A DNA stretch of 64,000 nucleotides, from the IMG/VR virus record IMGVR_UViG_2648501839_000008; one strand, 5' to 3'. Position numbers and translations under genes: made by a program. Below, piece after piece: positions 4,872-24,955 of this stretch. The stretch comes from a virus. Lineage: Duplodnaviria; Heunggongvirae; Uroviricota; Caudoviricetes. How positions within the stretch are numbered: the stretch's first letter is position 1; the number at the start of each line of letters is the position of its first letter. Below the pieces are notes generated by a model. The model was given only the letters and a program-made list of their open reading frames with translations. It was not told where the DNA came from and made no database searches.

Positions 4872-4893
4872 AAAAAAGGCGACCGAAGTCGCC
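4872..4893 (-). terminator. Rho-independent terminator (minus strand)
   Basis: GGCGACTTCGGTCGCC stem followed by TTTTTT on the minus strand, just 3' of the gene ending at 4900. Confidence 0.6.
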
Positions 4894-4899
4894 TAATTG

Positions 4900-6020: not shown

Positions 6021-6197
6021 GTGTCCACCTTAGCCGGTATTAACTTAATGTCATAGCGGCGACCCTTGTCAGGGTTTAGAGGCTACGAGTATGCGTCGCA
6101 GCATTAATGCAAGGGATGATTTACTTGACATCCATGTGCCAAATCTACCTTGTGCTCTAATAATATGCAAATTTTATGTTAGAAAACTCCTCTTCTG

Positions 6198-6428
6198 TTA
6201 TGGTACTTTTCTGCCCCATCCACACAATCGCTCCCCTATCATATTGTGAAAAAGTACCTCTCTTTCAGTCTCTTCGGTCATGAGATCATCACGGCTGATG
6301 TATAGCGGTGTAGCCGCATCGCAGAAAAGCACACCAGCGGGTTGAGGCTTAATCACGCAACCACTTATTGTGCAACTCATGATGAACAGTAGAAGCATCC
6401 TTGCTCCGTAACTCATCAAGTGTTTCAT
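6198..6428 (-). CDS. o-spanin (Rz1-like outer-membrane lipoprotein), overlapped with the i-spanin gene
   Basis: Alternative frame across the Rz-like gene; signal peptide with lipobox ...FIMSCTISGC; start placed at internal Met (track ORF is 6198-6506). Confidence 0.4.
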   Translation of the reverse strand: MKHLMSYGARMLLLFIMSCTISGCVIKPQPAGVLFCDAATPLYISRDDLMTEETEREVLFHNMIGERLCGWGRKVP

Positions 6429-6600
6429 TTTTGACGTCCAATGTGCTTTGAAGTCGTTTCCTGTCTTCCTGTTTTGCCTTCTCTTCCATTGCTCGTCGCG
6501 CCGCATTTCCGCCCATCGTGTAAGCGCCGACCAGAACGAAAAGAACGGCAGCCAGCGTAATCAAAGCAACTTTTAGCTTTGTCATCAGGCTGCCTAGCAT
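6349..6600 (-). CDS. i-spanin (Rz-like)
   Basis: N-terminal TM segment (LKVALITLAAVLFVLVGAY) followed by a charged coiled-coil region; contains the Rz1-like ORF in another frame. Confidence 0.5.
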   Translation of the reverse strand: MLGSLMTKLKVALITLAAVLFVLVGAYTMGGNAARRAMEEKAKQEDRKRLQSTLDVKNETLDELRSKDASTVHHELHNKWLRD

Positions 6601-6601
6601 A

Positions 6602-7321
6602 TTAGACCATCCCTTTCTGGTGTCTTCTTACCTGCGACCAGGCAATGAATCCGGCCACAACAATAGTGGCAATGCCGAAGATGATGCGTACTGTATCCCC
6701 GCTAGAGATATGACCTTGTGCCTTATCCATAGCAGCGGAAACCTGCGGCATAACATCGGCCAGCTGCGCCAGACCAATACCTGCTGTAACAGTTGCGCCT
6801 GCAGTTTCTTTAGTTACAGGAACAGCCTTCACGGTTTTCACCGGCTTAACGACGCCAGCTCGACGCAGACCTTCCTCAATAACTTCTGCCGCATACCAGG
6901 TGTTCAGCGTTTTTAGCGGACCTCGCCCATTCTCATGGCGAATGATTGCCTCAACCAAAGGTCGAAGAATGTCGTAATCATGCAGATCGATGATCATGTC
7001 TGCGGTTACACCAACGGCTTTAGACACCTCATTAATGTAGGCGTCAGTGTTGTTTTCATTCGGCGGTGCCCAACGTTCAATAACTTCACGAATGGTATCG
7101 ATACTTGAGCCGTCTTTTGCGCGACGTTTGTCGTGGTAGGTAATTAGAGTCACCGCCAGCGCACGAATCCCCCAAACAGGGTCTTTAAACGTGCAAAAGC
7201 GCGGTTCGTCTGGATTCGCAATCAGACCTTGCCACGGTGATCCTTTATCAAGATTACCGGGGTTATTATTACGAATGCCTCTCGGAGTCTTCATCCTTGA
7301 TCTCCTGTTATTGCAGTCCAT
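6602..7321 (-). CDS. Putative lysis protein / peptidoglycan hydrolase candidate with C-terminal membrane anchor
   Basis: Lies between the holin-like and spanin genes; conserved-looking RNNNPGNL motif; C-terminal hydrophobic segment IIFGIATIVVAGFIAW; family not recognised. Confidence 0.35.
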   Translation of the reverse strand: MDCNNRRSRMKTPRGIRNNNPGNLDKGSPWQGLIANPDEPRFCTFKDPVWGIRALAVTLITYHDKRRAKDGSSIDTIREVIERWAPPNENNTDAYINEVSKAVGVTADMIIDLHDYDILRPLVEAIIRHENGRGPLKTLNTWYAAEVIEEGLRRAGVVKPVKTVKAVPVTKETAGATVTAGIGLAQLADVMPQVSAAMDKAQGHISSGDTVRIIFGIATIVVAGFIAWSQVRRHQKGMV

Positions 7322-7643
7322 TTTTTACGCCATACGCGGCTAACCCCAAAAGCAGTGCAGTAATAATGAACGACGTTATTTTAGAAACAATGCCGCCAAA
7401 GAACCCACTGGAGATGGAATCTAACCGGTTAAGGAGTTTGTCCAGGTTGGAGTGTTGAATACTATGTTGCGCCGGGGTCATATCACCAAAGTAGGTTTTC
7501 AGCTGATCATTGACCTCCTGGCCAATTTCTTCACGTAGCTCTTTACCTAATTTGCCAACAACCTCCCGAGCAACGATCGCGGCAATACGCTCAACTTGCT
7601 CTGTTGTAACGCCCGCCATCTCGTTCGACATGTTTTCCTCCAT
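7308..7643 (-). CDS. Small membrane protein (holin candidate)
   Basis: 111 aa with a single C-terminal TM segment; first gene of the putative lysis cassette. Confidence 0.3.
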   Translation of the reverse strand: MEENMSNEMAGVTTEQVERIAAIVAREVVGKLGKELREEIGQEVNDQLKTYFGDMTPAQHSIQHSNLDKLLNRLDSISSGFFGGIVSKITSFIITALLLGLAAYGVKNGLQ

Positions 7644-7693: not shown

Positions 7694-7714
7694 GTAGGTG
7701 TGTACTTACTTATC
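7694..7714 (-). promoter_or_regulatory. Class-B palindromic site
   Basis: gtaggtgtgtacttacttatc about 50 nt upstream of the gene starting at 7643. Confidence 0.45.
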
Positions 7715-7943
7715 ATTCAACATTGCAACGGACTGATGAGAAAGCACCTACTCCAACCCATCGCCAGTTATAGATGCTACCCGCTTTGTATAAGGTATAG
7801 TCGTTCACTTTTTTAACAGCATATATGGGTATGACTGTCTCCTGTCCACCAATGATAGCCTCACCATAACATATGGGTGTCGGCAATTTCTGACAGCCAG
7901 TAAGAGAGAGAACAACAGCTATTGTTAGAAATAATCTTTTCAT
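7713..7943 (-). CDS. Small lipoprotein (Cor-like superinfection-exclusion candidate)
   Basis: Signal peptide plus lipobox LSLTGC, 76 aa, located just after the tail fiber genes. Confidence 0.4.
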   Translation of the reverse strand: MKRLFLTIAVVLSLTGCQKLPTPICYGEAIIGGQETVIPIYAVKKVNDYTLYKAGSIYNWRWVGVGAFSSVRCNVE

Positions 7944-7953
7944 CGTTTACTCA

Positions 7954-8562
7954 TCAGTTATACAGATTTCTATTTATTACCGGTACTCTGCCATTTACGC
8001 TAAAACTATGGCCGCCATTAAGTTGGTTTACGAATATGGAACTAACAGTATTTCCATATGCCGCATATCCATAAACCATTGTCATGGCCCCGCCCGGTAC
8101 TGGAACCGCGAACACATTTGCATATGTTGGGATTATCGCTGGCGGGTAATCAAAAACATGCCCTCCAGAACTGTTCCACTCCGTATTATTAAGAAAGGTA
8201 AATGAAAGTGGGATATTTGCCGTATTATAGATCTCCTCTCCTCGCGCATTGAAAAAACTCATGCCCCAAGTTTCTTTTTTGGCTATACCTTTCGAAAATA
8301 CGTATATCGTGGCACTAGAGTCGCTACCCTGACCTCCGAAACTGTAAATCACCTGGTTGTTACGCACTATTCTGTTGGCTATTAATGAAACAGCTTTCGA
8401 ATAGGCAACAAAAATCATCGGTGAACGATCTGGAGATATTTGGGTGTTAAACTCTGTCCCGCCAGACAAAGAAACAACCTGCTTTCTCTGAAAAACGATA
8501 GGAGACAAAGAAGGAGACATCCAGACCTTCCCGTCAGATCGATATATCTTGCTTCCGTACAT
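7954..8562 (-). CDS. Hypothetical protein (202 aa), tail-fiber associated
   Basis: ORF track; start overlaps the upstream stop (TAATG). Confidence 0.35.
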   Translation of the reverse strand: MYGSKIYRSDGKVWMSPSLSPIVFQRKQVVSLSGGTEFNTQISPDRSPMIFVAYSKAVSLIANRIVRNNQVIYSFGGQGSDSSATIYVFSKGIAKKETWGMSFFNARGEEIYNTANIPLSFTFLNNTEWNSSGGHVFDYPPAIIPTYANVFAVPVPGGAMTMVYGYAAYGNTVSSIFVNQLNGGHSFSVNGRVPVINRNLYN

Positions 8563-8816
8563 TATTTTTGAAAAACCAATATGTTTAAATTGCCACTAGC
8601 TCCAGACCATGAAATGGTATTTCCAGAAACCGTAAGACTTGTGTATTTCCCATTGGTTACGTCCATTATGTAATAGTCGATTCCCAATCCCGCCTCAACC
8701 TCATATGTTCTACTTCCAGAACCAGAGGGAGTAAAATAATCGAGGTAATAAACAGGGGCCAACGCATCGACCATCTCCTGTCTTGATGGCGACCATACCT
8801 GTGCACCATAGCTCAT
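8562..8816 (-). CDS. Hypothetical protein (84 aa)
   Basis: ORF track; coupled to the downstream gene. Confidence 0.35.
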   Translation of the reverse strand: MSYGAQVWSPSRQEMVDALAPVYYLDYFTPSGSGSRTYEVEAGLGIDYYIMDVTNGKYTSLTVSGNTISWSGASGNLNILVFQK

Positions 8817-8876: not shown

Positions 8877-10499
8877 TTATTCTTTAGGTGAATTTAACTT
8901 CGTTTCAAGCTCCTCAACCCTTTTGGTCAATTGCTGAATATGATGAATGAGTGGTACAACCAAACGCTCATACATCACTCCTTCAGCGACCATACCATTT
9001 GAGGAAATATCTTCTGGAGAATCATTATTTGTTGGTTCACGCCAATGGACATATTGCGGGGCAATCTCACCAACCTCTTCAGCAATAAGGCCGTAATACC
9101 CCCAATCCTTTCGGTCACCTCGACAAATTGAACGATACCAAACAGGTCTTAATGACAAAAGTTCATCAGCATATCGATCTTGTAATGTTTCAATATCCTT
9201 TTTATAGCGCCTTGAAGATGTTGAACGCCAAACTGTATTGATACCTGGGTTTGGATCAATGTACATATTGGCACCGCTAGTAGTTGTGCCAATATCCCAT
9301 ATAGCAAACCCTCCACTACCGCCTGATTTGACAACCAGTGTTTCAGCAATAATATCCAGGTTGCCACTATAGCCTGTCAGTGATGATCTGCTTGCATAGG
9401 AACTTAGAAGGTTTGTTACCTCTGTTTTCGTATAAGCATTAAGGTTAGCCGCAGTCAAAGTAATATCGGCAGAGCCATCAAACGCCACACCAGCAATTTT
9501 CCTTGCTGTCTGCAATTTTGTGGCTGTTGCGGCATTACCAGTAGTATTCTGATTACCGGTTGTATTCACACCAGGGATTGAATCCTTAGCAGTATATACC
9601 TGCGCCCACGCTGACCATGCCGCATCTGTGGTATCTCTTCGTGAGCGAATGAAAACTGGCGCATGTGCACCGCTCGTACCACTCCAGCCAATAAGCAACT
9701 CGCCCTCACCAGCAGCACTCGCACCTTTCATGTGCAATACGTTGCCATACGTGGTCGGGTAGCTATTGTTGTACGCCTCGTACATTTGAATGCCAGCAGT
9801 GCCTTGAGTAGAGCCGCTTAATGCCGTAACTCGGCCACGAGATACCAGTGTATTAATGTTGATATCGCCTGAGCCATCAAACTTAACACCATTGATGTTT
9901 CTCGCTGTTTGCAACTTCGTAGCTGTTGAAGCATTACCGTTCAAACTACCATTTACGCCACCAGTCACATTTAGTCCATTACCAATTGATACCGCACCGC
10001 TGGTATTATTAATTGTAATAGGTCGCAAACCGTTCCATGAACCTAATGTGTCTCCTGATGCTGTTAGCATGAAATATGTGTTCGATCCATCATTACGGAT
10101 AAAGAACCCAAAGCTACCGTAAGCAATGCGGAAACCATTTGCATATTTTGAAATGATCTCGCCAGAAGATGTCAAACCTCCAGATAATGTACCACCGGTA
10201 AGAGGTAATGCACCGACATCAGAGGCTGTTGGTTTGTTTTTCGTGTTATATACTCTTCGCCATCCCGGAGAATAATCTGTGCCATTAAATACATAGATAA
10301 ACTCCGCATTAGTGAGAGCACCAGAGACACTCGTCGTTGTGGCCGTTGTTATACGGATCGTATAATTGTTTGAGCTACTACCGTTATTAAATACCTCTAT
10401 AACAGCTCCTGCCAATGGAATAACGCCACAACCAGTTTCACTATTTGGTATGGTTGCACTATTGGCATAGGCCCACGCACTTTGTGTTAAATGCTCCAT
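8877..10499 (-). CDS. Tail fiber/spike protein with C-terminal intramolecular-chaperone (peptidase S74-like) domain
   Basis: GNASTATKLQTAR tail-fiber repeat motifs; C-terminal ...RRYKKDIETL...GLIAEEV... resembling self-cleaving chaperone domains. Confidence 0.6.
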   Translation of the reverse strand: MEHLTQSAWAYANSATIPNSETGCGVIPLAGAVIEVFNNGSSSNNYTIRITTATTTSVSGALTNAEFIYVFNGTDYSPGWRRVYNTKNKPTASDVGALPLTGGTLSGGLTSSGEIISKYANGFRIAYGSFGFFIRNDGSNTYFMLTASGDTLGSWNGLRPITINNTSGAVSIGNGLNVTGGVNGSLNGNASTATKLQTARNINGVKFDGSGDININTLVSRGRVTALSGSTQGTAGIQMYEAYNNSYPTTYGNVLHMKGASAAGEGELLIGWSGTSGAHAPVFIRSRRDTTDAAWSAWAQVYTAKDSIPGVNTTGNQNTTGNAATATKLQTARKIAGVAFDGSADITLTAANLNAYTKTEVTNLLSSYASRSSLTGYSGNLDIIAETLVVKSGGSGGFAIWDIGTTTSGANMYIDPNPGINTVWRSTSSRRYKKDIETLQDRYADELLSLRPVWYRSICRGDRKDWGYYGLIAEEVGEIAPQYVHWREPTNNDSPEDISSNGMVAEGVMYERLVVPLIHHIQQLTKRVEELETKLNSPKE

Positions 10500-13017
10500 T
10501 ATTTTGCAATAACGTCACTAACTGTGCTGTTGTTATTGCTCCGCCATTACTTCCTGTAGTTAACCAACCAGTAGGAGATGCCGGGCAACCTATATTTGCT
10601 GGCGACAAGGAAATATTTGCCGAGCCGTCAAACGACACCCCATTGATAGTACGCGCAGTCTGCAACTTCGTTGCAGTAGCCGCGTTGCCCGTTGTATTCT
10701 GATTACCAGTCGTATTAACACCTGGCAAATTAATATTCGCAGTACCATCAAAGCTCACGCCGCCGATAGTTCTTGCCGTCTGAAGTTTTGTAGCAGTTGC
10801 AGCATTACCAGTGGTGTTCTGATTACCCGTAGTATTTACACCTGGAAGGTTGATATTTGCAGAACCGTCGAAACCAACTCCACCGATAGATCTTGCCGTC
10901 TGCAATTTCGTTGCTGTACTTGCATTACCATTTAATGTTCCGGTGATCCCACCAGTAACAGACAACGGACCTGAAACTGTTCCTCCGGTTGTTGGCAGTG
11001 CTCCAATATCTAACGGCGTCGGTTTCTGATGTGTGCTATACATCGTATAAACAACACCATCGGTAACGCTGGAAGGCTTACTCGCTGAATATGTTGGCGA
11101 TGTATAAATAGAAACTGTCGCATTTGCAGTACAATCCCAATGGATATTTACACTAGTCGCATAATTGCCAATCTCAACGTAAATATCATATGTATCGCCG
11201 GATGTGTTGATCCAGGCGAAATTCGTTAATCCGACGGCTGTACGCTTCCACAAAGCACCGGTAATCCCTTTGGGGTTTCCATTGCCTGCTCGTAGAACCA
11301 GTTCTGAAATGCCTGCCTGATGTGGGGAGCCGACGTTGTAACCAGCGCCACCAATCAATGCGATGTAAACGATGGAACTCGCTTGTGGCATGGTAACCGT
11401 AGCCAGTTTGAACCACCCAGCCCCGCCAGAGAAAGACATCGTTACTGAATTTAAAGTACCAATATCTTTCGGCGTTAATGTGATATCCGCAGTCAGTGCT
11501 TTACCGTTAACTTTTCGGTTAGATGGCACCCTGCTATTCGCATTGTCATTGGCTGCTTTAACTGCTTTTGGCGTTGCGGCCAGCGATTCACTGGTGCTGT
11601 CGACAGCACTGCTAAGTTTCACAACACCTTTGGTGGTAAGGCTTGCGTCTTCCATCGCAACGGCACCGGCAATCTCTTCAGCACGATCAGCGGCAGCTTC
11701 TGCACGGGTCGCAGCGGATTCAGCAGCAGCTTTGCTCTGAGATGCAGCCGTCGCACTGCCTGCCGCCTCTGTTGCTTTCGTGGATGCCGTTGAAGCACTC
11801 CCCTTCGCAGCTGATGCCTGCTTGGTCGCCTCATCTTTTGAAGCGGATGCCGAGGTGGCTGATGCAGACGCAGAACTTGCAGATTCAGCAGCTGCCTCTT
11901 TAGAGGAAGCGGCATTATCTTCAGAAGCCTTTGCATTTGTTTCAGAGGATTTTGCTGCCGATGCTGAATTTTTAGCGGCTGTAGCCTGATTCGTCGCCTC
12001 AGTCGCTTTTGCGGTAGCTGTTGTCGCTGACGACGACGCGCTTTCCGCAGATTTTCCTGCCGCAGTTGCACTTGATGAAGCACTATCCGCACTTGCTGAG
12101 GCTGCGCTTGCTGACGCTTCTGCCGCAGATTTCGAACTGTTTGCAGACGATGCACTCTGCCCGGCTGCCGTTTCAGATGCTTTTGCGTTTGTCTCTGACG
12201 CTTTTGCTGCCTTAGACGAATTTTCAGCTTCTGTTGCAAATGATGCAGCCGCGTTTGCACTCGATGAAGCGTTAGTCTCTGATGCTTTGGCTGCATCCTT
12301 AGATGCAGAGGCACTGGACGCAGATGTTGCTGCCTCCGATGCTTTGGTCGACGCTACAGACGCTGATTCTGCTGCCGCTAGATATGCTGATTCTGCGTTC
12401 GTTTCAGATTTTTTCGCAGCAGTTGCACTCGCACTTGCGGCACTTTGTGAGGATGCCGCAGCGGATGCACTTTGAGACGCTTGAGAGGCTTTTTCTCCAG
12501 CGGTATTGGCGCTTTCTGCTGCTGCGGCAGCACTGGCCGCCGCCTCACGAGCTTTGTCACCAGCGGCATCAATCGCGTCAGTGTTATTTTTATACCACTC
12601 AACGTTTTCGTTGTGCTCGTTGACGATCTGCATCAGCGGCTTAACGGTCACTTCTGTACCGTCTTCACGCTCGATTGTCACCTCATCCAGAGCAGTCAAC
12701 CAACTACGCATGGACTTGGAATCAGCCGACATACGCGACATTAGCGCGGTAAAGCGCGCGCTAAACTGTGTTAAGTCGCCTTCATAGGTAGTAATGATTC
12801 GGCACGGAACTTCAGACTGAGTTTCACCGGTATAAGGTTCTGAGAGAACAATGTTCGTATCGCTTGTTACGCGCTTGATCTCATACAGCTTATTGTCGGG
12901 GCCAATGACGATCATCCCCGGCAACACACCATTAGCTGTTACGTTCCAGGCTGTCCCAACCCCAACCAGAGTATTACTACCCTGTGTAAATGTGATAGTA
13001 CCTTCCCTGTACCACAT
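10459..13017 (-). CDS. Side tail fiber protein (852 aa)
   Basis: Conserved tail-fiber N-terminal region, long Ala/Ser-rich repetitive shaft, repeated GNASTATKLQTAR...FDGSANI motifs. Confidence 0.7.
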   Translation of the reverse strand: MWYREGTITFTQGSNTLVGVGTAWNVTANGVLPGMIVIGPDNKLYEIKRVTSDTNIVLSEPYTGETQSEVPCRIITTYEGDLTQFSARFTALMSRMSADSKSMRSWLTALDEVTIEREDGTEVTVKPLMQIVNEHNENVEWYKNNTDAIDAAGDKAREAAASAAAAAESANTAGEKASQASQSASAAASSQSAASASATAAKKSETNAESAYLAAAESASVASTKASEAATSASSASASKDAAKASETNASSSANAAASFATEAENSSKAAKASETNAKASETAAGQSASSANSSKSAAEASASAASASADSASSSATAAGKSAESASSSATTATAKATEATNQATAAKNSASAAKSSETNAKASEDNAASSKEAAAESASSASASATSASASKDEATKQASAAKGSASTASTKATEAAGSATAASQSKAAAESAATRAEAAADRAEEIAGAVAMEDASLTTKGVVKLSSAVDSTSESLAATPKAVKAANDNANSRVPSNRKVNGKALTADITLTPKDIGTLNSVTMSFSGGAGWFKLATVTMPQASSIVYIALIGGAGYNVGSPHQAGISELVLRAGNGNPKGITGALWKRTAVGLTNFAWINTSGDTYDIYVEIGNYATSVNIHWDCTANATVSIYTSPTYSASKPSSVTDGVVYTMYSTHQKPTPLDIGALPTTGGTVSGPLSVTGGITGTLNGNASTATKLQTARSIGGVGFDGSANINLPGVNTTGNQNTTGNAATATKLQTARTIGGVSFDGTANINLPGVNTTGNQNTTGNAATATKLQTARTINGVSFDGSANISLSPANIGCPASPTGWLTTGSNGGAITTAQLVTLLQNNGAFNTKCVGLCQ

Positions 13018-13061
13018 GTTGAATATGCTCCTTGATTTGGTGGGCTATCCTTGCCCACCAT

Positions 13062-13080
13062 TAAGTAAGTACATACTTAT
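13062..13080 (-). promoter_or_regulatory. Class-B palindromic site
   Basis: taagtaagtacatacttat between the J-like gene and the tail fiber gene. Confidence 0.45.
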
Positions 13081-13110
13081 TTTTACCGATATAAATATTT
13101 TTTTCTACCA

Positions 13111-16100
13111 TCACAGAAGGCCAATTCTTACTCGTAAGACGTTGTTATCGTCATAAACGTCAATCCGCTGACCATTTATAACCAATCGCCCATTGCCGCC
13201 GCTATTACCGTTGATCTCAAGCGTTCCATTTTTGCCGAACCGCCATCCAGATCTACCGCTAACAAAATTGGTAGATTGCAGATCGCCTACTTTTGCATTG
13301 GTGATTGTGCCATCCTTGATATACGCACCATTCATATAGGCGATACTGTTTTCGATAACAAATGGCGTGGTGATCTTCCCGTTAACAGAGTTGACCAAAC
13401 CAAATCTGTCCGCCTGCACCAAAAACTGAGAAAGACCGGTGGTGTCGATACCAAGCGCAATACCGGCAACATACTTCTGCCCTCCGCTCGTTGAAGTCTC
13501 CATTTTCAACGTCCACGCGGTTGAGACTTTTTTGTTGGTATCAGCAATGGCTGTTGCCTGCTGTTGAATTGTCGCGGTATTTCCATCCACCTCTGCTTTC
13601 AGAGTATCGATTCGCCCACTTAGAGCATTATCTGCCTGCGTTCTCGCTGTCGTTTCAGTTGTGACCGCCGCAGAAATGTTGGCTGCTGTTTGAGACTCTA
13701 AGTTTGTGATTTGAGTCGCCAATGCCGCATCTTGCTCTGTACGCGTTTTCGTTTCGGTTGCTACAGCCGCTTTAATATCCTCTTTGTATTGAGAGGTCAG
13801 CTTGGTGATCTGAGATGACAACGCCGAGTCAGCATCAGTTCGAGCCTGCGTTTCCACTGCAACGGCCGCACTAATATCTTTCGCAGTCTGTGCTTTTAAA
13901 CTTGAAACCTCTTTTGTTAAAGCGGTATCGCCATCTGCACGAGCCGTTGTTTCTTTGGCAAGAGACGCCTCGAGATCATTAGCTTTTGCTGTAAGAGATG
14001 TAATCTGGCTGGACAATGCACTATCGGCGTCAGTCCTTGCCTTTGTCTCTACAGCAACGGCTGCGACAATGTCAGTTCCGGTCTGCGCCCGCAGGCTGTT
14101 AATTTCTCGTGAGAGCGCCTCGTCAGCACTTGCTCTAGCCTCCTGCTCCTGAGTGATGGCGGCGGATATATCACCGTCAACCTTTGCTTGAAGCTGGTTT
14201 ATTTGTTTAGCTAACGCAGAGTCTCCGCTCGCACGCGCCTCCTGCTCACTGCGTATTGCAGCAGAAATATCATCATCAACTTTTGCCTGAAGTTGGGTGA
14301 TCTGGCTTGCCAGAGCCGAATCTTCCGTTGCTCGGGCTTCTTGCTCTTCCTTAATGGCTGCGACAATATCGTTGCTTACTTTCGACTCAAGCTGAGTTAT
14401 TTGTTTCGTCAAAGCTTCATCGGCAGATGTACGAGCCTCCTGTTCTGTACTAATCGCCGCGCTGATATCTCCTTCAAACTTAGATTGCAGCTGAGTGACA
14501 CGCTTTGCCAACGCTTCATCGCCATCGGCACGAGCGGTGGACTCTTCCAGAATACTGGCCTTAATGTCTTCGCCAATTTCTACGCGAATTTCCTCAACCT
14601 TCGTGGCCATTGCAGACATATCATCAGCAAAGGTTTTCTGTGTTGTTGCGATCTTCGCGTTATTGACCATCTGCTTGTGCTGGTCTTCATCTTGACGAAG
14701 AGCCAGGTCAATATTTGTTTTAGCTAACGCCTCAATGTTCGTAGTCAGTTCTGCACTGGCACGATCGACCTCTGCAACCGTCTTTTTCATTTCTTCAACG
14801 GCTGCGGAACTTTCCTCTACCGTCGACTGCAACACTTCCAGTTGTTTAGCGTTTGCGGCATCACCTTCAACACGAGCCTCGCTTTCCTTAGCAATAAGAG
14901 CCGCCGCTTCGTCTCTTGCAGCCTTTATTGCCTCGACTGTATTAGCGAGAGCTTTATCGTGTTCAGATACGGTGTTTTCGATTTCAACAATTGCAGCATC
15001 AGTAGCATCAATTTTTTCAAACGCTTCATTGACCTTGTCGATCGTTGCCGAAACCTCACCTTTAAGCTCGGTTTGTGCGTTCTCCAAAGCATCGCTACGC
15101 TCGTTGAATTTTATTTCAAAACCCGCGAGGTTATCGCTGAACTGCTTATCTAATTCAGCTATATCTTCCTTAACGTCGTTTACCGCCCCCTCCAAAGATT
15201 CGACGCTCTGGTTGATATGCTCATTTAACTCGTCAACTGCTTCTTGAGAGGCTTTGCTGTTGATGTCCTCAAGCAGAGCCTGACCAAGCTCGGAAGATGT
15301 AATTTTGCCAGCCAGGAACGACAGTACATCGCGAGTTGTCGCCTCTGTACCCAAGTTTGAGTTCGGAGGGCTTAACATACCTCGCTTGTTCGATGCTCGA
15401 ACCCAGTAATACCACGTTTCGCTATCCCCAAGACCAGCATGTGTAAAGGTGGTGCTTGCAGACTCTGCGATCAGTTTCGCCGTATCCAGATTGTTGGTCT
15501 GGGATGCGTAAACATTAATGTGATCAAGGTCTACCGAATCTGGATTAACCCAATTCAGTATCACATTACGATAGTCTCCAACGGCCGTTAATGACGTTGG
15601 TGCATCCGGCGGTGTCATTGTGCCCAGCACCTGATAAACGGTACTGATAATTTCTGTTTTTTTACCGTTGAATGAAACCGCATACAGTTGGAAGTCGTAG
15701 CGTCCATTCTCCGCGACATTAACGATTTCGTATTGCTCTTCGGTTACACGCGCCGATTGCCAGTTCGATACATTGTTTTCATCAGAACGTCGCCAACTGA
15801 TCCAATACTCTGGAGATTTCCCTTCCCATGTTGCAGTCAGTTTTACTGACAGGTTGCCCGGGCTTGAGAGGTAAGTCCCTTCAGTGATTTGCAAATTAGA
15901 CGGCTTGGAGTAAGTCGGGTCCAATACCGTCGTATTCTGCGGGATAAGCGTTGCACCATTGTCGATCGCCTCATATTTAGACGGATTGTTTTCAACAGCG
16001 GTGATGTCAAAGCTACCCGACGTTTCCCCCTGAGCGATGTTAACGATGCGAACGCGCATAGGTTCGAGATCTGGTTCTGTAATTGTCCAGACACCGTTCA

Positions 16101-17835
16101 AAACAGGCGTTTCCGCTGACGACAGAGCTTTTGAAAACGTAACCTTTGTTATGTTTTCGCCAGTTTCAAGAACATCGCGCTCAACGATTTTGCCTTCCTG
16201 ATTCAATATCCGAATAAAGCTGCCGCTTTTAGCTAACGACACAGGCGCATCGAGAGTGATGCTGTTTTTGGTAAACTCCACAATTCGACCGGAGTTACGT
16301 TTACCTGCACGATATTTGTTCTGAATCAGAACGGTTTCACCGGGCATCAGAAATGAGGCGTCTAAGCCGGCAGTAAATGTAATTACATCCGACTCCATTC
16401 TGGCGGTATACAAAAGCCACAAACCAACTCGGTGAGCCTGGCCTCGGCTTGTACATCCAAATGCTACGACTTCTGTTTTACGCTCACCATAACGGCGCAT
16501 TGCGTCCTGATCTTCAACGTACTCGATGTTTTGCTTATAACCGTCCTCCTTGTTGTTGTAGGTTACGAGCGCAACGGATGGGCGATCTTTACGCGCAGAA
16601 CCTTTATAGGTAAACAGTCCATCTTTGACGTTGGAGTTGGTAAACATCATTACTGGATCTGATGGGCTATCCTGCATGATGTTAACCATGCCACCAGCCC
16701 AAAACACCATGCCGCGGAATGCACCGGCAATATCCTGAATTAATCGGTATGCGTCTTGTCGACTGGTGATCTGCGTATTGATTGCAAAGCGTTTCTCTTT
16801 ACCCCCAAAGCCATCATCGACCTCTTCGTCACAATATCGACCAATCTGGTAGAGCTGGCCGAGGTCAATCATGGATTCCGACACAAATTGCCCAAGACCA
16901 TACCGAGTATTGGTAAGCAAATCGTAGAGAATCCACGCAGGGTTTGAAGAAGACAACAGCTTAAAAGTACCGTCCCATACGCCGACATAAGTATTGGTGT
17001 ATTCGTTGTAGTTTGACGGCACTCGAATTTTGATACCGCGCACCAAATACGAACGGGAAGGCATTGTGCTACCAAACTGCTCTGAATTGACCTTTAAGCC
17101 AACAAGTGCAGAGTTAGGGTAGTTCATGGGGGTATCTACAATCTCACCGATGGAATCAACCCAAGTATCGTTGTAGAGGTACTGGCTACTGTTATCATCC
17201 GTAAGACGAATCACCCGAACCTTGTATGCACGGCCAGGTTTAGGCAGTTTCAGCTCATAGCTACGGTAATACACGCCGGTTTTCTTTGCCGTTAGCGTGA
17301 TATCAACGCTTTTCTCACCTTCTGCCACTACATCAGAAAATGTTGCGTCTCCGTTGGCGATCTGGAATTTGTACTTCACCGTAGTGCCATTTGTATCGCC
17401 AGAGCTTTTATCAACGCTACGTAAAGAGGGGAATTTCATGATGACACGAACGCGATCAGCTTCATCGTTATCGATTGAAACCGTAACGTCGTGTGTTTTT
17501 TTAAGCTGAATATTTACGGACTTAGGCGTTTCGACAAAATCAAAACCAGCCATTGGCGTCTGGTCTTGTGAGCCGTCACGAAAATCCCATGTAATACCGC
17601 TGAAGTTGGAAGAGCCATCTTCATTCAAGATCGGTAAATCGTCGATGAAGATCGACTTTGCGCCATTTACCAGGCCACCGATAACCCCCTCGCCAAGAAG
17701 GTCGAGGATGGCTGCCATAGCACGAGAATTTACAGTATCATCAGCTTCAACCGGGGTACGGCTGGAGCTTTTACTTTTCTTGCCACCAGCACCGGCAATA
17801 AGAAGCGGTAATTTTTTCTTCTTGAACTGTTCCAT
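13111..17835 (-). CDS. Tail tip / central fiber protein, lambda J-like (host specificity protein)
   Basis: N-terminal about 800 aa align motif-by-motif with lambda gpJ (e.g. ...NYPNSALVGLKVNSEQFGS..., ...AFGCTSRGQAHRVGLWLL...); C-terminal GQKYVAGIALGIDTTGLSQFLV matches the J fiber region; probable ATG at 17835. Confidence 0.85.
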   Translation of the reverse strand: MEQFKKKKLPLLIAGAGGKKSKSSSRTPVEADDTVNSRAMAAILDLLGEGVIGGLVNGAKSIFIDDLPILNEDGSSNFSGITWDFRDGSQDQTPMAGFDFVETPKSVNIQLKKTHDVTVSIDNDEADRVRVIMKFPSLRSVDKSSGDTNGTTVKYKFQIANGDATFSDVVAEGEKSVDITLTAKKTGVYYRSYELKLPKPGRAYKVRVIRLTDDNSSQYLYNDTWVDSIGEIVDTPMNYPNSALVGLKVNSEQFGSTMPSRSYLVRGIKIRVPSNYNEYTNTYVGVWDGTFKLLSSSNPAWILYDLLTNTRYGLGQFVSESMIDLGQLYQIGRYCDEEVDDGFGGKEKRFAINTQITSRQDAYRLIQDIAGAFRGMVFWAGGMVNIMQDSPSDPVMMFTNSNVKDGLFTYKGSARKDRPSVALVTYNNKEDGYKQNIEYVEDQDAMRRYGERKTEVVAFGCTSRGQAHRVGLWLLYTARMESDVITFTAGLDASFLMPGETVLIQNKYRAGKRNSGRIVEFTKNSITLDAPVSLAKSGSFIRILNQEGKIVERDVLETGENITKVTFSKALSSAETPVLNGVWTITEPDLEPMRVRIVNIAQGETSGSFDITAVENNPSKYEAIDNGATLIPQNTTVLDPTYSKPSNLQITEGTYLSSPGNLSVKLTATWEGKSPEYWISWRRSDENNVSNWQSARVTEEQYEIVNVAENGRYDFQLYAVSFNGKKTEIISTVYQVLGTMTPPDAPTSLTAVGDYRNVILNWVNPDSVDLDHINVYASQTNNLDTAKLIAESASTTFTHAGLGDSETWYYWVRASNKRGMLSPPNSNLGTEATTRDVLSFLAGKITSSELGQALLEDINSKASQEAVDELNEHINQSVESLEGAVNDVKEDIAELDKQFSDNLAGFEIKFNERSDALENAQTELKGEVSATIDKVNEAFEKIDATDAAIVEIENTVSEHDKALANTVEAIKAARDEAAALIAKESEARVEGDAANAKQLEVLQSTVEESSAAVEEMKKTVAEVDRASAELTTNIEALAKTNIDLALRQDEDQHKQMVNNAKIATTQKTFADDMSAMATKVEEIRVEIGEDIKASILEESTARADGDEALAKRVTQLQSKFEGDISAAISTEQEARTSADEALTKQITQLESKVSNDIVAAIKEEQEARATEDSALASQITQLQAKVDDDISAAIRSEQEARASGDSALAKQINQLQAKVDGDISAAITQEQEARASADEALSREINSLRAQTGTDIVAAVAVETKARTDADSALSSQITSLTAKANDLEASLAKETTARADGDTALTKEVSSLKAQTAKDISAAVAVETQARTDADSALSSQITKLTSQYKEDIKAAVATETKTRTEQDAALATQITNLESQTAANISAAVTTETTARTQADNALSGRIDTLKAEVDGNTATIQQQATAIADTNKKVSTAWTLKMETSTSGGQKYVAGIALGIDTTGLSQFLVQADRFGLVNSVNGKITTPFVIENSIAYMNGAYIKDGTITNAKVGDLQSTNFVSGRSGWRFGKNGTLEINGNSGGNGRLVINGQRIDVYDDNNVLRVRIGLL
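13850..14850 (-). repeat. Tandem coding repeats (~84 bp, ~28-aa units) inside the J-like gene
   Basis: About 12 units of the form EQEARASADEALTKQITQLQAKVDGDISAAI...; coordinates approximate. Confidence 0.6.
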
Positions 17836-17852
17836 GTCCAAAAAATCCTTGA

Positions 17853-18443
17853 TTACATAAGCTGGTCGATGGTGATAGAAGAACTCACGACCTGTGAGCC
17901 AACTAAAATTTCCTCACCATAGATAAGCTGTACAGGGTTCCCCTGGTTTGTTGTGTTTTGAGGTCCATCGAAGTAATAAGAGTTCGAGTTATCCGCCTGC
18001 CTCACACTTTCGTTAGTGGCTTGCGGAGATATGATTTGCGCTATACCACCCATCATCAGTGACAAACCGAGAGGCGCAAGAGCGGGCACCCATATCGAGG
18101 CAACCATTAATACTGCTCCAACAACCGTCTGAAACCACCCAAAAGCAGATCCACCACTTCCTCGCGGAACAGGGGTAATGCGGATTTTGGCAATGTTGTC
18201 AGACTGCCCCATCATCTGATATTCACTCTCGTCCACAGACCACTTGTGGCCCTGTTTATTGGTGATCTGGATGTGGTATCTGTCATAGGTTTTGATGTTG
18301 CGCTTCATCCATGCTTTAAACCCAGGCTTGTTGGCCTCAATTAAATCCAGAGCCTGTTTTGTATTGCGCACCTTTAAATGCCAGTGGCGGCCAAAATGTT
18401 TGGCCATAGGGCCGCCAAGCTGCACATGAACTAACTCAGACAC
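17853..18443 (-). CDS. Tail assembly protein I-like
   Basis: Position after K and before J; hydrophobic C-terminal half like lambda gpI. Confidence 0.65.
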   Translation of the reverse strand: MSELVHVQLGGPMAKHFGRHWHLKVRNTKQALDLIEANKPGFKAWMKRNIKTYDRYHIQITNKQGHKWSVDESEYQMMGQSDNIAKIRITPVPRGSGGSAFGWFQTVVGAVLMVASIWVPALAPLGLSLMMGGIAQIISPQATNESVRQADNSNSYYFDGPQNTTNQGNPVQLIYGEEILVGSQVVSSSITIDQLM

Positions 18444-19228
18444 GTCTCATCTCCCTTGAGCAAGTCTCTGTGACGCAAGTGATGCGTCGTATGTTTCTGA
18501 TACATTCCGCCGTAATAAGCACGACAACTAAGGCGGTCGATCTGGTGATGAAGAATCATTCCATCGCCGATATAAACCGCGCAGTGGTCAGGCATTTTCC
18601 CGTATTGGATAAAGAAGATGTCCCCACGTTGAGGCTCTGTTCCGGGCGCAAGCCGTACCAATCCTTCGTTTCGGTAGTTCTGGTCGAGAATGTCGTTATC
18701 GCCGGTGTACCACGATGGAATATGCAGGTGTGCGTTCGGGTTTAGTTCGACGTTAAACTCACGCTTCAAATAGTCCCGACACAACATCCAGCAATCGAAT
18801 ACGCCAAATACATACGGTCTGCCCAGGTATGGCATTTCGAAACCATCAGGTGTGATCACATTCATCTCGCTAAAATGGAAAGGGGCATCTCCCTCAACAT
18901 TCTTGCGAATAGCCAGAATCATCCACGGAACTTCCGTCGCTTCGCAGCCTGCACGATCGGCATCAGATGCTTCTGCTGATTCATCAGTATGTGAATGCCA
19001 GATTGCGATAACATCACCCGCATCCTCTGCCGCCATAATGTCGTCAACGTGCATTACAAAAGTGTTCTGCGGGTTCTCCGAAACATTCCGCGCTTCCATA
19101 AAGCGATATTTGTCGCCATTAGTTCTAACCAGAAAGCCACACGCTTCATTAGGGTAGCGATTTATGGCGCAGAGATAGATTTGCTGCATAACGTCAGAGC
19201 CAAGCTCAGGGATTGCTTTATTACCCAT
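18431..19228 (-). CDS. Tail assembly protein K-like (MPN/JAB plus NlpC/P60 domains)
   Basis: Lambda gpK-like architecture and position; probable ATG at 19228 (track start is TTG). Confidence 0.7.
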   Translation of the reverse strand: MGNKAIPELGSDVMQQIYLCAINRYPNEACGFLVRTNGDKYRFMEARNVSENPQNTFVMHVDDIMAAEDAGDVIAIWHSHTDESAEASDADRAGCEATEVPWMILAIRKNVEGDAPFHFSEMNVITPDGFEMPYLGRPYVFGVFDCWMLCRDYLKREFNVELNPNAHLHIPSWYTGDNDILDQNYRNEGLVRLAPGTEPQRGDIFFIQYGKMPDHCAVYIGDGMILHHQIDRLSCRAYYGGMYQKHTTHHLRHRDLLKGDETCLS

Positions 19229-19919
19229 ACCGCGTAGCTCCAATAAATCCGCCAAAATGGATCACACCGTCGGCAAAATAATTCCGACGCGCATTACAGG
19301 CGTCATAACGTTTTGTGCAGTAATCCGCACCAGACATAGACGTCTGCTGGTTATTTTTGTCGAAATATGGACCGGTATATCCGCATTCTGGCCCTCGGTA
19401 TTTCCACGGGCAGGTGTTTTTAATGATCTGACGATACGGCAGTTGCACCCCCATCAAATCGAACACACTGGACAATTCAAACTCGACAACCTGATGAGTT
19501 TCGAGAGTTTTCTGTTCGATAAACCACATTTCATCAGGGAAATGTTGGTTTGGATCTGCTGTTGGGTTGCCGTCTTTAAAATTAACGGCATCGAGGAAGC
19601 GAGCCAGCGTCATCTTGCGAATAATGCGGCAGCCAACAAGATCGTCGTTCGCCTGAACTTCCGCAGAGACGGTTCCGGCAAAGTTCGATACCTGAATTTT
19701 TGGACGTGGCAACGTTCCCTGGCCCGTTTTGTCAAAGCCTGATGCTTTGATTGGCCACGGCTCGTATGTCACCCCTTGCCAGACGACCGGTTGCATCAGT
19801 TCGTTTGTTCCGGCGTGGAAGAATAGCTTCCCCCCTGAAGTTGTGTTCGACATATCCAGTACGAACAACTCAATGAGTGCAGAGGGAGATAAGCTCTGAA
19901 TATCAGCTTTAATTCCCAT
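19221..19919 (-). CDS. Minor tail protein L-like
   Basis: Shares with lambda gpL the ...ARFLDAVNF... and C-terminal Cys cluster (CPWKYRGPECGY...C...C); start at internal ATG with AAGGA RBS. Confidence 0.8.
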   Translation of the reverse strand: MGIKADIQSLSPSALIELFVLDMSNTTSGGKLFFHAGTNELMQPVVWQGVTYEPWPIKASGFDKTGQGTLPRPKIQVSNFAGTVSAEVQANDDLVGCRIIRKMTLARFLDAVNFKDGNPTADPNQHFPDEMWFIEQKTLETHQVVEFELSSVFDLMGVQLPYRQIIKNTCPWKYRGPECGYTGPYFDKNNQQTSMSGADYCTKRYDACNARRNYFADGVIHFGGFIGATRYG

Positions 19920-19981
19920 TGTTTCATCCTTGAAATAAGTAGGCGCTAACATCCTGTCAGCGCCACAATGATAGTAAATTA

Positions 19982-20004
19982 GTACTTACTTATCCAGATA
20001 CTTA
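19982..20004 (-). promoter_or_regulatory. Class-B palindromic site
   Basis: agtaaattagtacttacttatcc overlapping the M stop, upstream of L. Confidence 0.45.
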
Positions 20005-20337
20005 AGCCTCAAATACTTGTCTGAATGTAGCAGTTAAGACACAGTGCCCCTGATATCGCTTGACCGTATGACTGTCACATACAACTACAATCTGCTTGCC
20101 TCTTGGATTAACCCAATAGAACGATTCAACGCCTGATCGCTCAGTCAGGAAGTCATCGATTGCATTAATTTCGTTGTATGATCTGGTAAAGGTTAACGAC
20201 CATTCTTCTTTAATACGATTAAGACCTTGAGCCTGTCGCTGCTCGTAGTCATCACCAAAATTAAGTACCGTTACATTCGGTTTTACGCTTTTTTCAGATT
20301 CGTAATCTGGATACCAATTAAACGTTTGTCTTTCCAT
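20002..20337 (-). CDS. Minor tail protein M-like
   Basis: 111 aa with lambda gpM-like FGDDYEQR and FL.ERSGVESFYW motifs. Confidence 0.75.
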   Translation of the reverse strand: MERQTFNWYPDYESEKSVKPNVTVLNFGDDYEQRQAQGLNRIKEEWSLTFTRSYNEINAIDDFLTERSGVESFYWVNPRGKQIVVVCDSHTVKRYQGHCVLTATFRQVFEA

Positions 20338-20379: not shown

Positions 20380-23300
20380 TTAGTTACGTTGAGTGTTTGG
20401 GTTGAGTGATCCGCCAGGGCGTTTCTCTTGAGCGATAGTCTCAAGCGCGATTGCTTTCATCCGTTGAGCGGCATTGTTCCATATGCTTTCTGTATCGCCG
20501 GATTCAGTTGTGCTACCGTCACTATGGACGTTGATCTCAATTGATACCGGAGAAAGAACATTTCCTCCTCCACTCATACCATCGGTACTGAGCGTTACAG
20601 GGATTGTTCGACCATCAGGCAATGGAACATACGCCTCATTCATATCGCCTTCCCCAAACAACGCCAATTGAGGTGAGTTGGCGATACCGCCTTTCTGGTA
20701 TGCCCGGAGCGGGATCACGCCGTCTTTTCCAAATATGCCACCATTTGCAAACTTCGGAATTGCAGGAATACCATTCGTGCCATCGGCAGCAGAACTGGTC
20801 AGATTGTTGAAGCCGGAAGTTGAGCCAGAAGAACCGGACATCAATCCATCGAATCCACCACCAGCCCATACTGAAACCAAACCAGATGCAACTGTCGCGC
20901 CGAAATTCAACCACTTATTACCAGAGCCGGAAGCATTAGCTCCAAGCATTGCAAACGCGGCTGACAGAGCGCCGGTAACAGAGCTGAGATTCTGCATCGA
21001 GAAGATGGAGTCCTTCACTGCTTTTGTCTCAGCATCTTTGGCTTCGGTGCTATCAAATAGCCCCGATACCCAGCTACCAATCGCATTTGTTGCTGTGCCA
21101 ATTGCGCTGGTGGTCTGCTGTGTTGTTTGCCCCAATCCAGTTACCGAACTGGACGTCTCCTTCGTGGCTTCTCCTACCGACTTGTCGCCATTAACAGTGT
21201 TGCCCATTCGTACACCTTGATTGGCAACGGCAGAAGCAACCCCGGTCAGCAAATTGCCACTCTGTGAACTACCAGCTGCGGTGGTTCCCATCCCCAACAT
21301 GTTCATTAGAGGCAGCGTGATTTGCGACTTCACGACCATATTGGTGATATCTTTCAAAATGGACTGAGATAGGCTGGAGAAGCTCATCTTCCCGTTAATA
21401 ACGAAATCAGTCAGGACATCAGTTAAGCCACTAAACAAATCAGTCCAGGTGCTTTCAATCTGCTCTGCCAGGTTTTCGTATTCCAGTGCCAACTTCTGCG
21501 TCGCAGTCCCCGTCTCTTTAATAAGCGCGGTATTGCCAGCAGCAATAAGTTGATTGATTTTCTTTGTATAAAGCGCCACGACTTTAGGATCAGACGCCTT
21601 ATCACGAAGTTCTATCAACGCTTTGAGATTGCGGTTGTAGGTGTCTTCGAAATCAGCAACTTTCTCTTCACGAGACGGCGTATAGCCAGCACTAATAATG
21701 GAATCCGCCTCCGGTGCCCAAGTGGAGATCATCTGCTCAACATTGCGGCGATTAAACATCTCGCGATATTCAGGTGTCGCATTTTTGAGGTCTTCAAGAC
21801 GTTTTTTCGCCTTGTCGATCATCTCTTGAGTGATGAACTCGTTAGGAACCGCATTAGCCAAATCAGTTAGCGATTTCGTTGTATCGCGAAGAGACTGATC
21901 AAACGATACCGTAGCCTTAGAGCTTTCACCCATTTGCCCCATAAGCTGATCGGCTTTATCCAGAGCCTTCTGATATCCGGCCGCCAGTTTCTGTTGCGCT
22001 GCCTGTTCTTTCTTGGCCGCACGCTGCGAGGCATTAGCTGATCGTTGGGCTGCTTTCTCGGCGGCTGCGGCATCCTGTTCACGAGCTTTAGTCAGTGCGG
22101 CAATGGCTGCGGCACGCTCTTCATCGCTCATTTTCTCCAGAGAGCTGGCACTGGATGCTTTCTGCAAATTAAGCTGCGTCTTGAGTTGTTTAGGCCCAAT
22201 AATCGGCTTACCTTCGAAGTCCTTCATCGGAGTGCCATCAGGCAAAGTACGCTGATAAGTCGCAGAATCCATCTGGTTTCGCATATATTGCGCCAGCGCC
22301 TTCTGAGCAGCTTTATCAGTTGTACCTAACCCAAGAACCGTCCCCTGGTTTGACATTACGCCCTTACCAGTTTTGGCCGCGTTATCTCTCTCGAACTCTG
22401 CCTGTGTCAGTTCCTGAGCAACGGCTTCCAAATGCTCCTGATAACCACGAATACTGCCTTGCAGTTTCTGGATTTGCTCGGTATTGCCATCTTTTTTGGC
22501 TTTTTCAAGCTGATCATTAAGAGTCGCTATTTGCTTCTCGGTAGCATTCTTACGAGAAGAAAGTGAATCAACCAGTTTTTGCGCAGGCTCCAGATAGCTT
22601 TTGTTTACCGTTTCACGTAACGGTGCCAATAGCTTGTTCTTTTCGTCATCTGAAAGTGAACCGTCATCATTGATTTTCTGGATCTTATCCAGAGCCTCCT
22701 GCCGGGCTTTCACGAATGTTGCCGCGAAAATCTGGTTTTCCGCTCGAATTTTCTCAATCTGAGATTCGGCAGCCTCTTTAGCCAAACGCTTTGCTACAGC
22801 GCCGTCACCAAGAGCTATCGTGCCGGTTATCTTTTGATACTCTTCCTGATTTTTTTTCAGGCGTGCTTCGATGTCAGCCTTCGACTCTTTGTGAGTAATA
22901 ACACCGGCAGAGTTAGATACGTAATTAACACCCTCACCAGTTTTTAATGCTCGTTGATCAGCAAGAATCTGCTTTTCGAGCTTTTCTGCGCGGTCGGCCA
23001 TTTGTGCACGTTTGGCCGCTGTCATCGCTTCTGGTATTTTCCTAATCTCGTCAACGACCTTTGAAGTTTCGCTGCGGAGCATGGTCATGTACGTGATTAG
23101 GCCAGCAACAGCTACAGTGGCAACTGTAAATGCTGCCCCTATAGGGTTTGCTGCAATGAACGCCGTTAATCCTGCAAAAGCGCCTTTCAGCCCCGTAATC
23201 GCCCCACGGATGGCGAAAATGAGAGAGGGGATCGGAGCCAACCCCATACGTGCCGCACGATTGAATCGAGTTACTGCTGTAGCGCCGAGGTTAAATGGAG

Positions 23301-24948: not shown

Positions 24949-24955
24949 TCCCTTG

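Follow-up and report, generated by a model that had tools for sequence, protein, structure and literature searches.

The gene at positions 13111-17835 (minus strand) of the window, by which is meant the whole stretch of 64,000 nucleotides (nt) of viral DNA analysed here (IMG/VR record IMGVR_UViG_2648501839_000008, Caudoviricetes), encodes a J-type tail-tip protein in which a proline-free alpha-helical region of about 570 amino acids (aa) lies between a lambda-type hub with fibronectin-III (FN3) domains and a beta-rich distal tip. This protein, hereafter J, is intact, has already been annotated and is an ordinary representative of the J-type central fibres that combine a helical shaft with a blunt tip, a widespread class. 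Its points of interest are an unusually long and regular array of ten repeat units, the natural series of unit numbers present in related phage-plasmids of Escherichia coli, and the precedent offered by the F-type pyocins. By analogy with the latter, the shaft of this central tail fibre is on balance probably trimeric and metastable and would refold in the manner of a spring, receptor recognition taking place elsewhere.

The J protein and its helical shaft

From its sequence, the element carrying the gene is an SSU5-like phage-plasmid of E. coli, since it is nearly identical to the E. coli plasmid pRM13322 (99.1% identity over the 20 kb around the J gene and 99% nucleotide identity between the J genes), its J gene has 94% nucleotide identity over the full length to CYRAN_20 of the phage-plasmid Cyrano/pLF82, annotated as 'tail host specificity protein J', and a search of 5426 complete E. 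coli genomes gave 212 matches, each of them on a plasmid, of about 100-120 kb. A gene for ParA is found close by within the window. The J gene itself occupies a single long open reading frame (ORF; 13111-17841) with an intact frame, and its translation almost certainly starts at the ATG at 17835. This codon is preceded by AAGGA at a distance of 10 nt, follows closely on the end of the preceding gene and yields the MEQFKKKK start also annotated in relatives. Residues are numbered from this ATG; the 'TTG numbering' used for some results counts from a TTG two codons upstream, i.e. the ATG number plus 2. The protein matches phrog_31 ('central tail fiber J') with E = 0, and in relatives RefSeq names the gene product 'TipJ family phage tail tip protein' or 'phage tail tip fiber protein'.

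An earlier note, made from the letters of this DNA, had described a J-like tip protein whose N-terminal part of about 800 aa and fibre segment track lambda gpJ and which has no lambda-type C-terminal receptor domain, and both statements are borne out. BLASTP aligns TTG-numbered residues 22-860 with lambda J 3-835 (32% identity, E 5e-119) and residues 1421-1509 with lambda 841-931 (34% identity, E 3e-11); therefore about 560 aa are inserted between lambda residues 835 and 841, where lambda J has five residues. Pfam identifies FNIII-A_GpJ (PF24801, E 1.1e-29) and Phage-tail_3 (PF13550, E 7.5e-34), both exceeding their gathering scores, together with fn3, while Phage_Tail_Tip (PF09327, E 1.2e-41, profile positions 1-138 of 139) covers TTG-numbered residues 1424-1558 of 1576. 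The receptor-binding domain Ig_GpJ_C (PF12421) gave no Pfam match at E < 0.1 in J, whereas lambda J matched with E 4.5e-74. The PDB sequence search also retrieved lambda J (8iyk, E 1e-127). The score of 534 bits with NCBIfam lambda_TipJ (NF049904) lies below the cut-off of 1950, and J is therefore a homologue and not a lambda equivalog. In summary of the comparison, both proteins share the M-L-K-I-J gene order, a colinear region of hub, FNIII-A and FN3 domains and a homologous beta central-fibre segment (lambda structures 8iyk, 8xci and 8xcj), whereas the helical insertion is confined to J and the LamB-binding C-terminal Ig domain to lambda.

The protein ends 18 aa past the Pfam tip domain and about 67 aa past the BLAST alignment to lambda. 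Foldseek searches with the modelled tip retrieved the lambda central fibre (8xcj, E 1e-5, and 8xci) and the tail tip fibre of SU10 (7z4b). The short ending (GW..K.G..E.N ... VYD..N.LRVR.G) is common to the solved chains 9l9p_S and 9ze4_N, which a sequence search retrieved for the J-type repeat and/or this ending, and it occurs with at least 80% query coverage in 938 phage records, including T1-like, Dhillonvirus, HK106 and mEp043-type lambdoid, Burkholderia, Ralstonia and Vibrio phages. The J 'tail spikes' of Drexlerviridae, Dhillonvirus and Traversvirus that are devoid of a receptor-binding domain (Matusiak 2025; BASEL phages) have this short ending as well, with homologues of orf202 (see below) near J. 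The J of the T1-like mar001J1 differs in being much shorter, at about 1190 aa, a length that would leave little room for a long shaft.

The insertion consists of two parts (Table 1). The first, a non-repetitive stretch of 238 aa, has no counterpart in lambda J by BLASTP and is present in all J alleles of the SSU5 family, a 1229-aa allele with a single repeat unit included. The second is the repeat array, with the unit consensus xETxARAxADxALxxQITxLxAKxxxDISAAxx, autocorrelation maxima at lags of 33, 66 and 99 residues and 49% identity at lag 33; an isolated degenerate copy lies about 110 aa upstream of the array. Thus, the earlier claim of a tandem coiled-coil insertion of ~500 aa stands as regards a large helical insertion, of about 560 aa, and has to be restricted as regards its tandem nature, 238 aa of it being non-repetitive. 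The lay-out had been given as about 12 units of 28 aa, with DNA repeats of roughly 84 bp at 13850-14850; autocorrelation and unit lay-out give ten units of 33 aa (3 x 11), with a DNA period of 99 bp at 13561-14547. At the DNA level, the units are 37-65% identical to each other (mean 51%), the longest exact in-register match being 12 nt. Tandem Repeats Finder, run on 12000-19000, reported no 84- or 99-bp array because the units have diverged at the DNA level, and the repetition can be detected only in the protein or with loose DNA seeds: it is conserved at the protein level and not at the DNA level. No Pfam family matched the repeat region of J.

The helical nature of the whole region is apparent from its composition and periodicity, as well as from modelling. 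The 568 residues from the last FN3 domain to the tip contain neither Pro nor Trp, and 16-20% Ala. In the non-repetitive coil (16% Ala, 15% Glu) the hydrophobic period is 3.56, of the heptad type. In the repeats, where Thr and Ser together reach 21%, the hydrophobic signal is strongest at 33/9 = 3.67 (hendecad-type) and 33/16 = 2.06 (strand-type). An AlphaFold2 (AF2) monomer model of TTG-numbered residues 1165-1576 (412 aa), built on an alignment of 60 sequences, has a mean pLDDT of 84 and a continuous helix over model residues 2-241 (pLDDT about 60-95), which runs from unit 3 through unit 9 into unit 10, ending after the first third of the latter, and is followed by the all-beta tip. In this model, strands one and two of the tip come from the second half of unit 10 (SGRIDTLKAEV, NTATIQQQATAIA), whereas the equivalent segments of units 3-9 are helical.

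The design is common. A profile of the ten units, searched against representative proteins (clusters at 50% identity), matched at least 1389 representatives at E <= 1e-3, of which 620 reached E <= 1e-10; many have 10-27 matched stretches. Three of the five top matches scanned have the hub-shaft-tip architecture, with 11, 21 and 23 units (P0204, P0203 and P0198).

The pyocin precedent and the state of the shaft

The closest mechanistic precedent, the central fibres of F-type pyocins, was passed over by the earlier note. The best PDB sequence match of J is the F2-pyocin tail fibre (25vf_A, E 6e-156); when the C-terminal half alone served as query, units 6-10 and the tip aligned with chain residues 927-1193 (E 1e-25), and the pyocin stretch beside the tip, SEQTARANADSALAQRIDTVQASTDTNSAAIQ, is recognisable as a single copy of the J repeat unit. 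The pyocin fibres (PyoF10/PA0641; F2, 25vf; F7) are like J in having, in the same order, a hub, FN3 domains, a helical shaft, a beta tip devoid of receptor-binding domain and an ARxxADxAL-type unit beside this tip. They differ in that the pyocin shaft is irregular and about 170-260 aa long, whereas that of J comprises about 570 aa with ten regular units; the pyocin side-fibre and tip-adhesin genes are also different, in placement too, from those of the window element.

Three papers of 2026 describe the pyocin homologue of J as a long trimeric alpha-helical shaft, on which the side fibres dock through their N-terminal domains, and which ends in a distal beta-prism without receptor-binding domain; small proteins (PyoF11/PyoF12, PA0642) were modelled on the end of this prism. 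In the F7 pyocin, a coiled coil of 163 aa is converted into a beta-prism on cell contact, the tip opens and the tape measure protein is expelled, and mutations that block the prism abolish killing, assembly being unaffected (He et al. 2026, PMC12874032). The same work predicts the fold switch for 21 of 24 phage central fibres (SSU5 is not named in its main text) and defines a fold-switch motif, SxSxxMxxLxS, often with Asp or Glu at M and Arg at +/-4 (PMC12874032). When the repeats of the window were scanned for this motif, with residue sets of our own choice taken from the percentages in the paper, 26 full matches were obtained, against 5.4 +/- 2.2 in shuffled sequences (maximum 13 in 1000). 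The signatures of the units fit this motif: ARxxxDxAL is present in all ten units (as TRxxxDxAL in unit 9), and an ALxxQITxLxA-type match in every one.

On the pyocin model, the likeliest mechanism of J is the following. The N-terminal ~860 aa, with the lambda-type hub and the FN3 domains, close the tail tip, and three J chains would form an extended trimeric coiled-coil shaft, as homology to the pyocins suggests, of roughly 80 nm when fully extended (our own estimate, at 0.15 nm per residue). Such a shaft would keep the tip away from the tail and offer a docking place to side fibres. It would be metastable: on receptor engagement its repeat-bearing part would refold from a coiled coil to a compact beta-prism, whose formation would open the tip and expel the tape measure protein, as in the F7 pyocin. 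Receptor recognition would occur via the side fibre, which is reported to bind the lipopolysaccharide (LPS) core in SSU5 and is probably broken here, and possibly via small proteins capping the tip. In the course of evolution the array changes by whole units, from 1 to 10 in the family and up to 23 elsewhere, while being stable in the short term. A more specific proposal, which is put forward tentatively, is that the array is a modular, length-tunable spring, each 33-aa unit furnishing three prism strands of 11 residues and the number of units setting the reach, stroke or stored energy to suit the host envelope.

Several points weigh against such refolding. The trimeric state, the length of the shaft, the docking site of the side fibres and the fold switch are all inferred by analogy, and the switch, side-fibre docking and tip adhesins have been shown only for pyocins. 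Lambda and T5 do not use a switch from coiled coil to prism (He et al., PMC12874032), and electron microscopy of Cyrano reports just a flexible tail of 259 nm. Furthermore, units 3-9 are helical in the AF2 monomer and no prism is seen, which is compatible with the presence as well as the absence of a switch, the 1229-aa allele with one unit fits a simple spacer as well as a spring, and the outcome of the motif scan is tied to the residue sets chosen.

These points bring in the strongest alternative, a static stalk, which is possible though unlikely: J would be a rigid or flexible trimeric spacer that sets the projection of the tip, for example through O-antigen or capsule, carries the side fibres and never refolds, the envelope being penetrated as in lambda. 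Such a passive spacer is kept in play by sister plasmids whose alleles have one unit and by the AF2 model, with its confident helix and no prism. The clean heptad periodicity of the first 238 aa and the function of lambda and T5 without any fold switch are also in keeping with it, and the unit number varies between lineages as freely (within the range given above) as would be expected of a spacer tuned in length. It is less easily reconciled with the repeats, which are enriched about five-fold for the fold-switch motif, are homologous to a pyocin shaft that switches, combine a strong beta-type harmonic (about 2.06) with a higher Thr/Ser content than the heptad part and, in the AF2 model, have half of unit 10 in strands. 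The metastable shaft is therefore preferred here with reserve.

The question bears on how non-contractile tails pass the outer membrane; to date, a pyocin is the one case in which the switch from coiled coil to prism has been shown. The J proteins of SSU5-like phage-plasmids, whose shafts differ naturally in length and are made of one regular unit, are convenient for testing whether the switch operates in phages and what role length has; if true, the modular spring would be directly testable in a real phage by means of the natural alleles of E. coli phage-plasmids. SSU5-like phage-plasmids are common in E. coli, about 3% of its complete genomes having the J allele of the window; some carry resistance genes, and PhiR41_1 is recorded with K-12 MG1655 as host.

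Receptor recognition and the genes downstream of J

The earlier note held that J has probably handed receptor binding over to two downstream tail fibres and that the DNA repeats are a likely site of length variation. This combined reading is rather unlikely; its first half is considered here and its second half in the next section. Delegation agrees with the lack of PF12421 in J and with SSU5, where gp22, a fibre protein encoded downstream, is credited with binding to the LPS core (Kim 2014, as cited in PMC12312913). It also agrees with the fibre N-terminus (MWYREGTI..., up to ~300 aa), which is conserved in SSU5, Cyrano and PhiR41_1, the distal parts being different. A conserved N-terminus would also suit a fibre that docks on the shaft. 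Against it stands, first of all, the structure of the fibre locus, which holds one gene instead of two. The two fibre ORFs match positions 1-847 and 849-1385 of phrog_3299, and in pRM13322 the fibre is a single coding sequence of 1385 aa. They are separated by a 17-bp deletion that falls between positions 10478 and 10479 of the window; the lost sequence is ACATCGAGCAATCCATG in pRM13322, with AC microhomology at its flanks. In each of the 25 records listed, out of 66 full-coverage matches on E. coli plasmids, the 17 bp are kept (138 bp, against 121 in the window).

The deletion cuts the fibre after about 846 residues, with loss of the distal Gp34-type trimerisation and S74 chaperone domains. 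Judging from the reading frames, the fibre is probably broken in the window element, which may make fibre-less particles; the frameshifted stf of laboratory lambda is a case akin to this one. In addition, the J tip is nearly invariant where the fibres of relatives differ, which suggests a conserved role of the tip itself. Delegation of receptor binding to the fibre is thus plausible for the SSU5 family, and is probably not functional in the window element. As regards annotation, J is to be described as a TipJ homologue without receptor-binding domain, its repeat as a widespread protein motif without Pfam match in this protein, and the downstream fibre as a single gene, here probably broken. 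Between J and the fibre gene, a 93-nt spacer (13018-13110, minus strand) contains an inverted repeat, GGTGGGC...GCCCACC, without a subsequent T-run, situated directly upstream of the AAGGAG ribosome-binding site of the fibre gene.

Further downstream lie orf84, orf202 and the lipoprotein gene cor, which the earlier note missed and which are candidates for an alternative tip adhesin or for an exclusion module. By eye, the N-termini of the orf84 and orf202 products are alike (MSYGAQVW... and MYGSKIY...). It is conceivable, if doubtful, that one or both of these proteins form a small adhesin on the blunt J tip, analogous to PyoF11/PyoF12 or PA0642, cor suggesting FhuA as terminal receptor; such a cap would be compatible with either model of the shaft. 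The three genes are clustered after the fibre gene, and no signal peptide was found in the orf84 and orf202 sequences. The model of orf84 is a small beta-sandwich, with phage fibre and receptor-binding proteins among its weak structural matches. No orf202 is present in the pMT1 plasmids of Yersinia, in which J carries a C-terminal domain fused to it. Cor, as known from phi80, N15 and HK022, excludes FhuA-dependent phages, which would fit FhuA as the receptor. Finally, the pyocin papers put small proteins on the fibre tip, and a modelling study proposed pairs of this kind, an 'outer membrane protein' and a 'membrane associated protein', as tip adhesins of J proteins with a 'knife-like' end and no receptor-binding domain, including that of an FhuA-dependent Dhillonvirus (Matusiak 2025).

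The cap is opposed by Cyrano and PhiR41_1, which share the J tip but are without all three genes. Nor do these proteins have sequence similarity to the C-terminal domains of J; for orf84, there were no Pfam, NCBIfam or PDB sequence matches, and Foldseek gave no significant structural match (best E 0.54 against PDB and 5.7e-3 against BFVD). In the T1-like mar001J1, the orf202 homologue adjoins the 3' end of J with convergent transcription, an arrangement that fits an exclusion or host-takeover module better, and 'moron' is the PHROGs class of phrog_425 and cor.

Two related candidates were rejected. That orf84 is a split-off receptor-binding domain of lambda J found no support in BLASTP and phmmer comparisons with the C-terminal 230 aa of lambda J and of four relatives, with nothing below E 0.09. 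That the trio orf84/orf202/cor is a strict companion of the J tip was discarded because Cyrano, PhiR41_1 and the PC-NDM34 pIncFIB plasmid share the tip without the trio. OV696614.1 (82217-82666) and about 115 plasmids encode a protein distantly paralogous to orf202, with about 26% identity over 151 aa; in many SSU5-like plasmids, among them Cyrano, which is without orf202, its gene lies roughly 50 kb away from those of the tail.

Unit number among relatives, and neighbouring genes

Within the SSU5 superfamily (SSU5 gp20, Cyrano CYRAN_20, PhiR41_1, pHCM2, pMT1) J is the same gene, with hub and tip 90-100% identical, and the alleles differ in the number of units and in the C-terminal ending. Nine units are found in PhiR41_1, seven in the Salmonella, Cronobacter and Y. 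pestis pMT1 homologues, and five in tandem in SSU5 (six with the isolated copy) as well as five in another E. coli allele, while the 1229-aa J allele of E. coli SSU5-like plasmids has one. As this last allele occurs in E. coli, the ten-unit array is not essential to the family. With regard to the ending, the alleles of Y. pestis pMT1, S. Typhi pHCM2, Citrobacter and some E. coli (P0034, P0038, P0044 and P0079) have an extra C-terminal domain after ...GTITNAKVG, which in P0044 and P0079 is the lambda-type PF12421; blunt and extended endings therefore behave as exchangeable modules within the family.

Among close relatives the array is nearly constant. About 165 complete E. coli genomes have plasmids on which the C-terminal 2290 nt of J, the whole array included, are found with 95-99.8% identity, and 163 PLSDB plasmids carry a J region of identical length. 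About 46 full-length copies, an even sample of the ranking out of these 165, were listed, and all but three have the same length. Two of the exceptions, in strains AH02 and HCP30S3_I2, span 2191 nt instead of 2290 and, on translation, have exactly one 33-aa unit (99 bp) fewer each; the missing unit is at the junction of units 4 and 5, where the window has an exact match of 11 nt. In the third, E. coli strain 3385 (NZ_CP029421.1, 24686-28228), the C-terminal half of J is split by ISEc52, an element of the IS3 family.

These data bear on the second half of the combined reading introduced above. The two plasmids with a nine-unit allele speak for the repeats as a site of length variation, whereas the constant length of J in the remaining listed copies, bar the one split by the insertion sequence, and the divergence of the units, which are too different (37-65% identical, exact matches of at most 12 nt) for frequent change, speak against it. 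The comparison of copy numbers among related elements, which the earlier note had recommended, gave a mixed answer: unit number differs between distant lineages (1, 5, 7, 9 and 10) but is near-constant among close relatives. The array evolves by gain and loss of whole units, yet it is stable in the short term and is no fast-varying locus. A hypervariable tandem repeat locus of the contingency type, which was also considered, is contradicted by the DNA divergence and by the rarity of copy-number polymorphism among the copies listed.

An assembly artefact or a chance feature, the former being named by the earlier note as what would refute its description, can be dismissed: no support for it was found (many J entries in databases are partial, but their breaks sit upstream of the array), and it is contradicted by the identical-length region in the complete genomes and PLSDB plasmids cited above, by units so diverged in their DNA that they cannot mislead an assembler, by the intact reading frame and by the occurrence of the repeat unit in at least 1389 protein clusters. 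Many of the 'partial' database copies (P0083-P0116) end at about residues 940-1090, within the non-repetitive coil, which suggests that short-read assemblies or recombination mosaics often break J there.

The positions of J, its parts and the surrounding genes are collected in Table 1. The order tape measure, M, L, K, I and J is that of lambda, with J as the last gene of the series (PF05939, PF05100, NlpC/P60 + JAB, phrog_32 and the tape measure protein being the matches).

Table 1. Positions of the J gene, its protein regions, neighbouring genes and nine-unit alleles (window coordinates unless an accession is given)
Feature	Position	Strand	Basis
cor lipoprotein gene	7713-7943	minus	phrog_1119; NCBIfam Cor equivalog, 80.5 bits against cut-off 31
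orf202	7954-8562	minus	phrog_425
orf84	8562-8816	minus	phrog_557
Tail-fibre gene (one gene, 1385 aa in relatives), split	8877..13017	minus	ORFs 10459-13017 (852 aa) and 8877-10499 (540 aa)
J-type central tail fibre / tail-tip protein gene, 1574 aa + stop	13111..17835	minus	ORF, start context, PHROG, Pfam
J: beta-rich distal tip (Phage_Tail_Tip / DUF1983), short ending ...RIDVYDDNNVLRVRIGLL, without receptor-binding domain	13114..13560	minus	Pfam match at 13168-13572
J: ten tandem 33-aa units (one of 32 aa), aa 1097-1425	13561..14547	minus	autocorrelation, DNA identity matrix
J: non-repetitive helical segment, heptad-type coiled coil, aa 859-1096 (238 aa)	14548..15261	minus	periodicity, composition
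J: hub and fibronectin-III domains, aa 20-858, colinear with lambda J 3-835	15262..17778	minus	BLASTP, Pfam, PDB matches
I-like assembly protein gene	17853-18443	minus	PHROG/Pfam (phrog_32 among matches)
K-like NlpC/P60 + JAB protein gene	18431-19255	minus	PHROG/Pfam
L gene	19221-19952	minus	PHROG/Pfam
M gene	20002-20337	minus	PHROG/Pfam
Tape measure gene	20380-24969	minus	PHROG/Pfam
Nine-unit J alleles, 1541 and 1542 aa (E. coli plasmids)	NZ_CP081702.1 3001-7626; NZ_JBWDPM010000001.1 3001-7629

Two antisense ORFs on the plus strand within the J gene (14293-14727 and 14735-15247) are taken for by-products of the Ala-rich coding strand. Finally, in an AT-rich island beside the ParA gene (the stretch 2001-4000 has a GC content of 0.335), an ORF of 567 aa (1950-3653, minus strand) matches the KAP-family P-loop NTPase domain (E 1.5e-5) and phrog_4740 (annotated as 'unknown function'); it may be an accessory or defence gene.

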